Source: a virus
DNA length: 64,000 bases
Virus record (IMG/VR): IMGVR_UViG_3300025703_000001
Coordinates: 22,324 to 86,323 of that record
Strand: one strand, 5' to 3'
Shown here: positions 59,863-60,006 of the stretch, piece by piece
How the letters are laid out: every line of letters begins with the position of its first letter
Numbering within the stretch: position 1 is the first letter of the stretch
Notes under the pieces: generated by a model
The model's input: the letters and a program-made list of their open reading frames with translations, nothing else
Told to the model about the DNA's origin: nothing
Databases searched by the model: none
Made by a program: the position numbers and the translations under genes

Positions 59863-60006
59863 ATGACCGAGGAACGCAAAACGCGCAAGCAACTGCGCGA
59901 AGAGGCCGACGCCAAGAAGTCCAAGCGGGCCAACACCGACAAACTCAAATCTGACCTAGACGCCATCGTTCACCTCATTGACGATGCTCTCGGCGGGGGC
60001 GAATAG
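59863..60006 (+). CDS. 47-aa Pup-like protein ending in GGE (not in ORF track)
   Basis: MTEERKTRKQLREEADAKKSKRANTDKLKSDLDAIVHLIDDALGGGE*. Confidence 0.6.
   Translation: MTEERKTRKQLREEADAKKSKRANTDKLKSDLDAIVHLIDDALGGGE

Follow-up and report, generated by a model that had tools for sequence, protein, structure and literature searches.

Here we describe a short gene of a peat bacteriophage whose product is, as judged from profile comparisons, a genuine but truncated homolog of Pup (prokaryotic ubiquitin-like protein), the bacterial tag for protein degradation. We analysed 64,000 nucleotides (called the window below), which correspond to bases 22324-86323 of the complete 86,323-bp virus record IMGVR_UViG_3300025703_000001 with direct terminal repeats. 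The open reading frame (ORF) at 59863-60006 on the plus strand runs from ATG to TAG and encodes 47 aa with the C-terminus DDALGGGE; we refer to it as mini-Pup. Coordinates, strand and translation all match those given in a first-pass annotation, which had been made from the letters alone and had suggested a Pup-like decoy or alternative tag ending in GGE. On the evidence of its conservation, the ORF is a real and functional late gene. We propose that its product may be a non-ligatable mimic or decoy that docks on Mpa/ARC, the unfoldase of the host proteasome, and not a tag. This proposal, for which we see the arguments as evenly balanced, is made because the half of Pup that docks on Mpa/ARC is retained and the part held by PafA/Dop is lost.

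Homology to Pup and the parts that were kept

The single protein sequence is only weakly informative. A Pfam scan gave Pup (PF05639) as the only family, below threshold (18.6 bits against a cut-off of 27; E 0.0036), with the match spanning ORF residues 5-43 and profile positions 14-52 of 69. PHROGs and NCBIfam contained no matching family. A phmmer search against the PDB returned only prefoldin (E 1.8), and tblastn of the 47 aa against GenBank phages only T1 tape-measure noise (E 7); megablast of the region 58700-61100 against the same phages gave no match. In a word-indexed search of 5.8 billion proteins, we recovered the protein itself and just two others, P0002 (45 aa) and P0003 (46 aa).

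We then built a profile from the three sequences. Searched against 1.84 billion proteins (one representative per 50% cluster, E<=1e-3), it found 14 proteins: three short forms (P0003, P0023, P0026), ten Pup-like proteins of 63-104 aa (E 6.5e-10 to 5.7e-4) and a repeat protein of 891 aa with seven matching stretches (P0032). Seven of the Pup-like proteins end in ...YVQKGGE, ...FVQKGGE, ...GGQ or similar; P0024 ends in GGG and P0031 in SGQ, and the called ORFs of P0025 and P0035 continue beyond GGQ. Including a copy at 6001-6147 of contig L083, five short homologs of mini-Pup are known (P0002, P0003, P0023, P0026 and L083). All six mini forms match the Pfam Pup family below threshold (15.3-21.7 bits). 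Weak Pepco (PF24393) matches also came up in the Pfam scans (E 0.0019-0.075).

As an independent check of the homology, we aligned only the six mini forms (A7) and compared them by hhalign with an alignment of 21 cellular Pups (A8). The latter were chosen from 70 Pup ORFs extracted from 80 loci of Actinomycetota and other genomes, 80 being retained out of 114 relatives; ten loci gave no Pup ORF by pattern and were dropped. The match between the two alignments, with a probability of 95.7% and E 1e-8, extends over columns 20-45 of the mini forms and columns 27-52 of the 67 in the Pup alignment. A PDB search with the mini-only profile placed three Pup chains of Mycobacterium tuberculosis (Mtb) at the top (3m91_B, 7px9_G and 3m9d_G), with borderline E-values of 0.035-0.11. 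The Pup homology claimed by the first-pass annotation is thus upheld by both the profile search and hhalign, even though the Pfam score of the single protein stays below threshold. As references for cellular Pups we used the families PF05639 and TIGR03687, the Mtb structures 3m91, 3m9d and 7px9, and the Acidothermus structure 7oxy.

Pup is described in two bound states. On Mpa, residues 21-51 are reported to form a single long helix that joins the Mpa coiled coil, with the disordered N-terminus threading the pore (PMC8755798). On PafA/Dop, the last 27 residues are reported to form two orthogonal helices with the terminal residue in the active site; in Acidothermus Pup, helix 1 comprises D44-V53 and helix 2 N57-S64 (PMC8599861). 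The C-terminal 28 residues are stated to suffice for PafA (PMC11677243).

Mini-Pup retains the first of these two modules. Residues 1-24 (59863-59934, plus strand) make up a basic, Lys/Arg-rich segment that aligns with the disordered threading segment of Pup and has a lower confidence in the AlphaFold2 model (predicted local distance difference test, pLDDT, 66-68). The first 15 residues are invariant in three homologs, and MTEERKTRKQLREEA within this segment is identical in three of the three closest homologs and similar in full-length phage Pups. Residues 25-44 (59935-59994, plus strand) are predicted to form a helix (block pLDDT 84-95, with a 15-row alignment as input) that would correspond to the Mpa-binding helix plus helix 1, equivalent by alignment to about residues 29-48 of Mtb Pup. 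The PDB chain alignments place D26-L43 on Mtb E30-L47 and the last eleven of these residues on Acidothermus D44-L54, in agreement with the first-pass annotation, which had matched DKLKSDLDAIVHLIDDAL with the Pup helix EKLTEETDDLLDEIDDVL, here placed at Mtb residues 30-47. The loss of the EENAE..VQK segment that it had noted is likewise borne out: 14 residues are missing, Mtb E48-K61 (EENAEDFVRAYVQK in 3m91_B) or Acidothermus E55-K68, which are helix 2 and the YxQK linker, and G-G-E joins directly. These are half of the 27-28 C-terminal residues bound by PafA/Dop. TIGR03687, the C-terminal Pup domain, gave no match to mini-Pup at E<=0.1; on two full-length phage Pups it scored 40.5 and 35.9 bits (cut-off 41.45). 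By these alignments, mini-Pup appears close to "Pup 1-47 plus GGE", with the whole receptor-docking module and helix 1 and without helix 2 or linker.

The retained helix differs from that of cellular Pups at one site. The Asp equivalent to Mtb D41 is His in five of the six mini forms and the adjacent E42 position is variable too, both residues being invariant in the 21 cellular Pups. This change could reflect a relaxed constraint from PafA/Dop or a changed target. It also bears on another possible function, namely that helix 1 occupies the Pup groove in Dop, PafA or both and so blocks deamidation, depupylation or ligation. Helix 1 (Acidothermus D44-V53) is fully kept, and the affinity of Dop for Pup is reported to be about ten-fold above that of PafA (PMC8599861). 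But mini-Pup has lost half of the surface that binds the groove together with the contacts of the active-site residue, five of six mini forms have replacements at the positions equivalent to D41/E42, and the 24 conserved N-terminal residues would be left without a function, given that the N-terminal part of Pup is described as lying outside Dop binding (PMC8599861). We therefore regard a blocker of these enzymes as very unlikely.

Origin from phage-borne full-length Pups

Scans of viral and metagenome contigs yielded five related fragments (L083, L092, L093, L094 and L095), three of which carry full-length Pups that pass the PF05639 threshold (50.5, 50.8 and 67.9 bits for L093, L094 and L095). 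L095 contains, in this order, a lysin-like gene, a 66-aa Pup ending in GGQ, a 62-aa homolog of the small protein that also follows mini-Pup in the window (the partner, see below), a coiled-coil membrane protein, a small membrane protein and a glycosyltransferase. This is the gene order of the window with a full-length Pup instead of mini-Pup, and the glycosyltransferase resembles that of the window by eye. L093 has a Pup ending in GGE followed by the partner gene, and L094 (P0028) a Pup ending in GGE without it. The mini forms are found in L083, a 101,772-bp viral contig with a lysin gene, a 48-aa mini-Pup ending in DDERGGE and the partner, and in L092 (P0026), where a lysin gene and a 44-aa mini-Pup ending in ETV are directly followed by a glycosyltransferase. 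Lysin-like genes, assigned without a family scan, thus precede Pup or mini-Pup in L083, L092 and L095, and membrane/coiled-coil ORFs occupy the holin position in L093, L094 and L095 as judged by eye. The synteny shared with the full-length Pups comprises lysin, Pup, partner, holin-like protein, transmembrane protein and glycosyltransferase. Scans for further loci with the partner family and the six-member mini family returned only the L083 contig again, and with the endolysin or the 3-sequence alignment no related locus was confirmed among viral and metagenome contigs.

The junction between Pup and partner is also shared. It reads GGC CAG TAG t GTG in L095, the same layout as GGC GAA TAG t GTG in the window. 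We further compared contigs of four peat runs with positions 59700-60300. A 328-nt contig (depth 2.7) of run X3, which belongs to a different peat study, matches 59998-60094 with three mismatches, and its unmatched upstream letters read ..AMVAGFVQKG, then GE and a stop. This one low-depth contig suggests that a near relative has a full-length Pup joined to the same partner at the same base. Runs X4 and X5 gave no contig matching 59700-60300. Together, these comparisons of loci show that the mini-Pup gene of the window arose from a full-length Pup carried by phages, through deletion or recombination. An in-frame loss removed about 14 residues, comprising helix 2 and the Y-x-Q-K linker.

Trees of 22 sequences set the 16 phage Pups apart from six cellular ones (support 99/99 with 60 columns and 94/93 with 48 shared columns). 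The mini forms fall into two subclades, one with the window protein (P0001), P0002 and P0026 (support 93/92 and 89/92) and one with L083, P0003 and P0023 (96/96 and 98/96). The two were joined in 0 of 200 bootstrap trees, although a single origin is compatible with the approximately unbiased test (p 0.24 and 0.30). On these trees, mini-Pup may have arisen twice.

Pup genes were also seen at other places of phage genomes. Eight further viral contigs from IMG/VR carry full-length Pup genes (L084, L085, L086, L087, L088, L089, L090 and L091). The gene at L086:638-754 lies just upstream of ORFs that resemble a large terminase and a portal protein by eye. In L089, the Pup gene (5971-6246) is located between portal and scaffold and its product ends in AQGQ instead of GGQ; the 1,463-aa ORF upstream of it (1293-5684) looks by eye like a head protein of the fused portal/MuF type that contains an intein-like insertion as well as a Nudix-like segment, and the capsid protein of this phage resembles that of the window, again by eye. 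Among 50,697 GenBank phage records, the sole match of P0028 was an unannotated stretch at 43633-43716 of MT835496.1 (a 159-kb Bacteriophage sp.), 71% identical to the last 28 residues of P0028 (E 2e-5).

In the window, mini-Pup is located in the lysis module. The gene directly 5' of it (59202-59849, plus strand) encodes an endolysin of 215 aa (Glucosaminidase PF01832, 31.4 bits with a cut-off of 30.2; phrog_3513, endolysin, E 1.5e-7), and 13 nt separate its stop codon from the mini-Pup ATG. Downstream, a holin-like membrane/coiled-coil protein is encoded at 60251-61021 on the plus strand (phrog_15431, holin, E 3.1e-8), followed by a 60-aa membrane ORF and a glycosyltransferase-like gene. A promoter/terminator scan detected no terminator-like site on the plus strand between the lysis-module genes; promoter-like sites were at chance level (3 found vs 2.2 expected). 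With an endolysin upstream, a holin-like gene downstream and no terminator-like site between them, the setting in a late/lysis operon given by the first-pass annotation stands. An antisense ORF of 143 aa (59535-59966) was rejected as a real gene because the plus-strand product is conserved under purifying selection. Further upstream, an Endonuclease VII/HNH-type gene (58132-58728, minus strand) lies between the capsid gene and a 111-aa gene. Its homolog in L092 (2497-3240, plus strand) lies beside the same neighbour in opposite orientation, as expected of a mobile nuclease gene.

Selection on the protein was estimated from the ratio of nonsynonymous to synonymous substitutions (dN/dS). Pairwise values among the three mini forms with DNA (window, L083, L092) are 0.14-0.33, the same range as among three full-length phage Pups (0.12-0.35); synonymous divergence is near saturation in both comparisons, which makes these values rough. 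We take them as evidence for purifying selection on mini-Pup. They also bear on the idea that mini-Pup is a decaying remnant, i.e. a broken Pup gene kept only for the ribosome-binding site of the partner at its 3' end. That the gene is a deletion derivative with a freely varying C-terminus and a weak Shine-Dalgarno sequence of its own (GGTG) would fit such decay. However, all six members, at 42-84% identity, retain start, frame and helix, and the low dN/dS, the invariant first 15 residues in three homologs and the two well-supported subclades speak for a maintained protein. Moreover, the mini-Pup gene of L092 has a strong GGAGGG site with no partner downstream. We thus consider a mere remnant hardly credible.

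The GGE tail and the coupled partner gene

The C-termini of the six mini forms are GGGE, NA, ETV, KDE, GHE and DDERGGE. A GG[EQ] tail, nearly universal among the full-length relatives, is therefore present in only two of them (window and L083), one in each subclade; P0002, 84% identical to the window protein, ends in NA. The first-pass annotation had called for conservation of GGE in homologs as a check on its proposal, and here the result goes against the tag idea. Since only two of six mini forms carry GGE, a common function of the family does not need it. In L092, which has no partner gene, mini-Pup also lacks GGE.

The codons of the tail appear to have a second use. In the window, GGC GGG GGC GAA (59992-60003, plus strand), which encode GGGE, form a Shine-Dalgarno-like stretch directly upstream of the GTG start of the partner gene at 60008. 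In L083, the RGGE codons (AGGGGTGGAGAG) precede the partner ATG, which overlaps the stop codon of mini-Pup. The caveat already expressed in the first-pass annotation, that the tail could stem from the ribosome-binding site of the next gene, applies insofar as the GGE codons double as this site in both mini forms that have them. A tail made purely by the ribosome-binding site was rejected, as the junction is homologous to that of the full-length Pups. The window GGE is best read as an inherited remnant, retained for the use of its codons as the ribosome-binding site of the partner.

These observations weigh on the idea that mini-Pup is a short tag. In principle, host PafA could bind a mini-Pup ending in GGE in a non-canonical way, for example with its single helix in the helix-2 part of the groove, and attach it to lysines. 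The result would be an alternative degradation tag, or a tag that resists removal by Dop. The window copy and L083 do end in GGE, the ligation-ready form, a flexible Gly run precedes the terminal Glu, and ligation is plausible for the full-length relatives at this locus. Against this, GGE is missing in four of six mini forms, including the closely related P0002, and in both copies that have it the codons are the ribosome-binding site of the partner. Helix 2 and YxQK are gone, and with them 14 of the 28 residues that are reported to suffice for PafA (PMC11677243) and the second of the two helices bound in the groove (PMC8599861). TIGR03687 does not match, and by a rough geometric argument the four residues after the helix should be unable to span what 17 span in Pup. 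A ligatable short tag is hence quite unlikely in our view. Because GGE is not conserved and half of the residues bound by PafA/Dop are missing, the alternative tag envisaged in the first-pass annotation is also unlikely as a shared function of the family, to judge from the six sequences.

The partner gene (60008-60214, plus strand) encodes a Cys3-His protein of 68 aa with the pattern C-x8-10-C-x10-C-x2-H. Its start is most plausibly the GTG at 60008, one base past the TAG of mini-Pup; the ORF caller gives a TTG at 59978. An alignment of eight family members (A9) shows invariant LPIA.PA, C32, C43, C54 and H57. WRC (PF08879), a plant zinc-finger domain, is weakly matched in five of the eight, below threshold with a best E-value of 1.9e-4, and the AlphaFold2 model is poor (pLDDT 58.9). 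From the conserved residues, the partner is probably a small zinc-binding protein. It follows mini-Pup in the window and L083 and full-length Pup in L093 and L095, whereas no partner gene accompanies mini-Pup in L092 or full-length Pup in L094. P0002 probably still has a partner (P0041) downstream, each being recorded on a 2,539-bp JGI contig that we take to be the same one. P0045 (119 aa, on a 45,594-bp ENA contig) was dismissed as a natural fusion of Pup and partner: it reads from the N-terminal half of Pup into partner sequence and out again, like a frameshifted assembly.

Mini-Pup could also work through its partner, either as a ligase-free adaptor that brings the partner or a cargo to the unfoldase or in a lysis-timing role unrelated to the proteasome. 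The partner is translationally coupled and was kept after mini forms (window, L083, probably P0002/P0041) as well as after full-length Pups (L093, L095), and the slot between endolysin and holin is conserved. However, its absence in L092 and L094 indicates that it is not obligatory, the only hint at its family is the sub-threshold WRC match next to a poor model, and no physical link between the two proteins was found, so that by the available gene orders their association appears positional only. We consider such a two-protein module unlikely, though worth keeping in mind.

Proposed role and relation to known systems

According to the decoy proposal, mini-Pup would be made free and unconjugated in the infected cell. 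Its helix would dock on the coiled coil of host Mpa/ARC with the basic N-terminus presented to the pore. There it would compete with pupylated substrates, and Pup-dependent unfolding and degradation would be damped late in infection. Free Pup is reported to engage Mpa and the complex of Mpa with the core particle, free PupQ not being degraded and free PupE only poorly (PMC3769308); for this reason, mini-Pup would plausibly not be quickly consumed.

Several points weigh against this proposal. In cells without core particle, free PupQ is described as binding Mpa weakly (PMC3769308), and a competitor would therefore need high levels. The helix surface is altered at D41/E42 and may, to judge from the alignment, no longer fit Mpa. 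The presence of Mpa/ARC in the host is assumed. As a gene of the lysis module, mini-Pup would be expressed late, an odd time for a takeover of the host. The proposal does not account for the coupled Cys3-His partner, which may be what the pair is really about. Finally, mini-Pup contains eight lysines and could itself be a target of pupylation.

The rest of the genome bears on this question as well. PF03136 (PafA/Dop) and PF00227 (proteasome) are absent from the complete 86,323-bp genome. The sole AAA protein of the phage (354 aa; 11171-12235, minus strand) combines a DUF5925 domain (39 bits) with a classical AAA domain after it (43.4 bits). It does not resemble Mpa (TIGR03689, 13.4 bits vs a cut-off of 504.75), its best NCBIfam neighbours are ATPases of the CDC48/PAN type, far under the cut-offs, and a family search gave no signature of an Mpa-type coiled coil or OB domain. 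A second, separate Pup-like gene is located at 19094-19498 on the minus strand (PF05639, 24 bits, E 6e-6). Its product combines the Pup helix, in which ETDKLLDEIDRMLDQDA aligns to Mtb Pup in 3m91_B, with a conserved C-terminal domain and lacks GGE; 19 homologs were found, and the true start is likely M16. That this genome holds two genes derived from Pup lends weight to the idea that the phage deals with the Pup receptor of its host.

This host is probably an actinobacterium, although the hints are weak. The nearest cellular Pups come mostly from Actinomycetota metagenome-assembled genomes, with one such genome each from Nitrospiraceae and Tectomicrobia among the top 12 as well. The taxonomic range of DUF5925, as we presume it to be, is a weak hint in the same direction. 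A tblastn search with the capsid protein gave only distant matches to phages of Thermoanaerobacterium, Alicyclobacillus and Brevundimonas, which are uninformative on the host, and no tRNA genes were found in the phage.

If both forms of the gene are considered together, one and the same slot in phages of actinobacteria could hold either a ligation-competent Pup that feeds tags to the host system or a mini-Pup that blocks the receptor, and the latter would be the first natural protein antagonist of Mpa/ARC. We put this forward tentatively and regard it as somewhat doubtful. Our searches of the full-text literature turned up no report of phage-encoded Pups, Pup mimics or decoys, nor of a natural protein antagonist of Mpa/ARC. 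To our knowledge, pupylation is seen as belonging to cells only, namely to those of Actinobacteria and a few other phyla. Since drugs against M. tuberculosis are aimed at this system, mini-Pup could be a lead for peptide inhibitors; a 47-residue peptide with the receptor-binding half of Pup is also a testable probe of substrate recognition by Mpa/ARC. Full-length and truncated Pups at one phage locus provide a natural experiment on what phages gain from the Pup pathway. The locus also bears on the idea that the Pup-proteasome system exerts pressure on phage proteins; a 2026 review presents exposure of phages to this system as an untested hypothesis (PMC13696103). What is new here is the series of loci from full-length to mini form, including a near relative with the full-length gene at the same junction, together with a census of the GGE tails, the description of the partner family, and the tests of selection and phylogeny.

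Compared to cellular Pup, mini-Pup shares the homologous N-terminal segment and central helix, i.e. the plan of a small, charged protein with a disordered N-terminus and one long helix, and the window copy shares the terminal GGE. In contrast to cellular Pup, it scores below the Pfam cut-off, has no TIGR03687 match and lacks helix 2 and the YxQK linker. Only two of the six mini forms have GGE, and five have His for the invariant Asp of LLDEID. The phage genome that carries mini-Pup is also without dop, pafA, mpa and prcAB. From these features, mini-Pup is best described as a truncated derivative of the Pup family and probably not as a Pup in the functional sense.

The full-length phage Pups are more closely related. 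They share with mini-Pup the tree clade, the genomic slot, the basic N-terminus and often the partner gene. Unlike it, they keep helix 2 and GGE/GGQ, pass the Pfam threshold and could be ligated by host PafA; the mini form, given the missing residues, should be unable to bind PafA in the canonical way. The mini-Pup of L083 lies in the same gene order (a homolog of a 113-aa upstream protein, lysin, mini-Pup, Cys3-His partner, glycosyltransferases) and likewise ends in GGE encoded by the ribosome-binding site of the partner. It differs from the window protein in that it is only 42% identical, belongs to the other subclade, keeps the Asp-Glu of the helix and has three more residues (DDE R) before GGE, so that the boundaries of the deletion differ between the two. 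Taken together, the mini forms constitute a family of 44-48 aa that consists of only the N-terminal half of Pup and follows the lysin gene of related phages.

Phages are known to interfere with host proteolysis: PinA of T4 acts against Lon, and CIII of lambda against FtsH. Mini-Pup resembles the phage inhibitors of host ATP-dependent proteases described in PMC13696103 in being a small phage protein that is proposed to occupy an AAA+ protease system. Unlike these inhibitors, to which it has no sequence relation, mini-Pup is a cut-down copy of the system's own tag.

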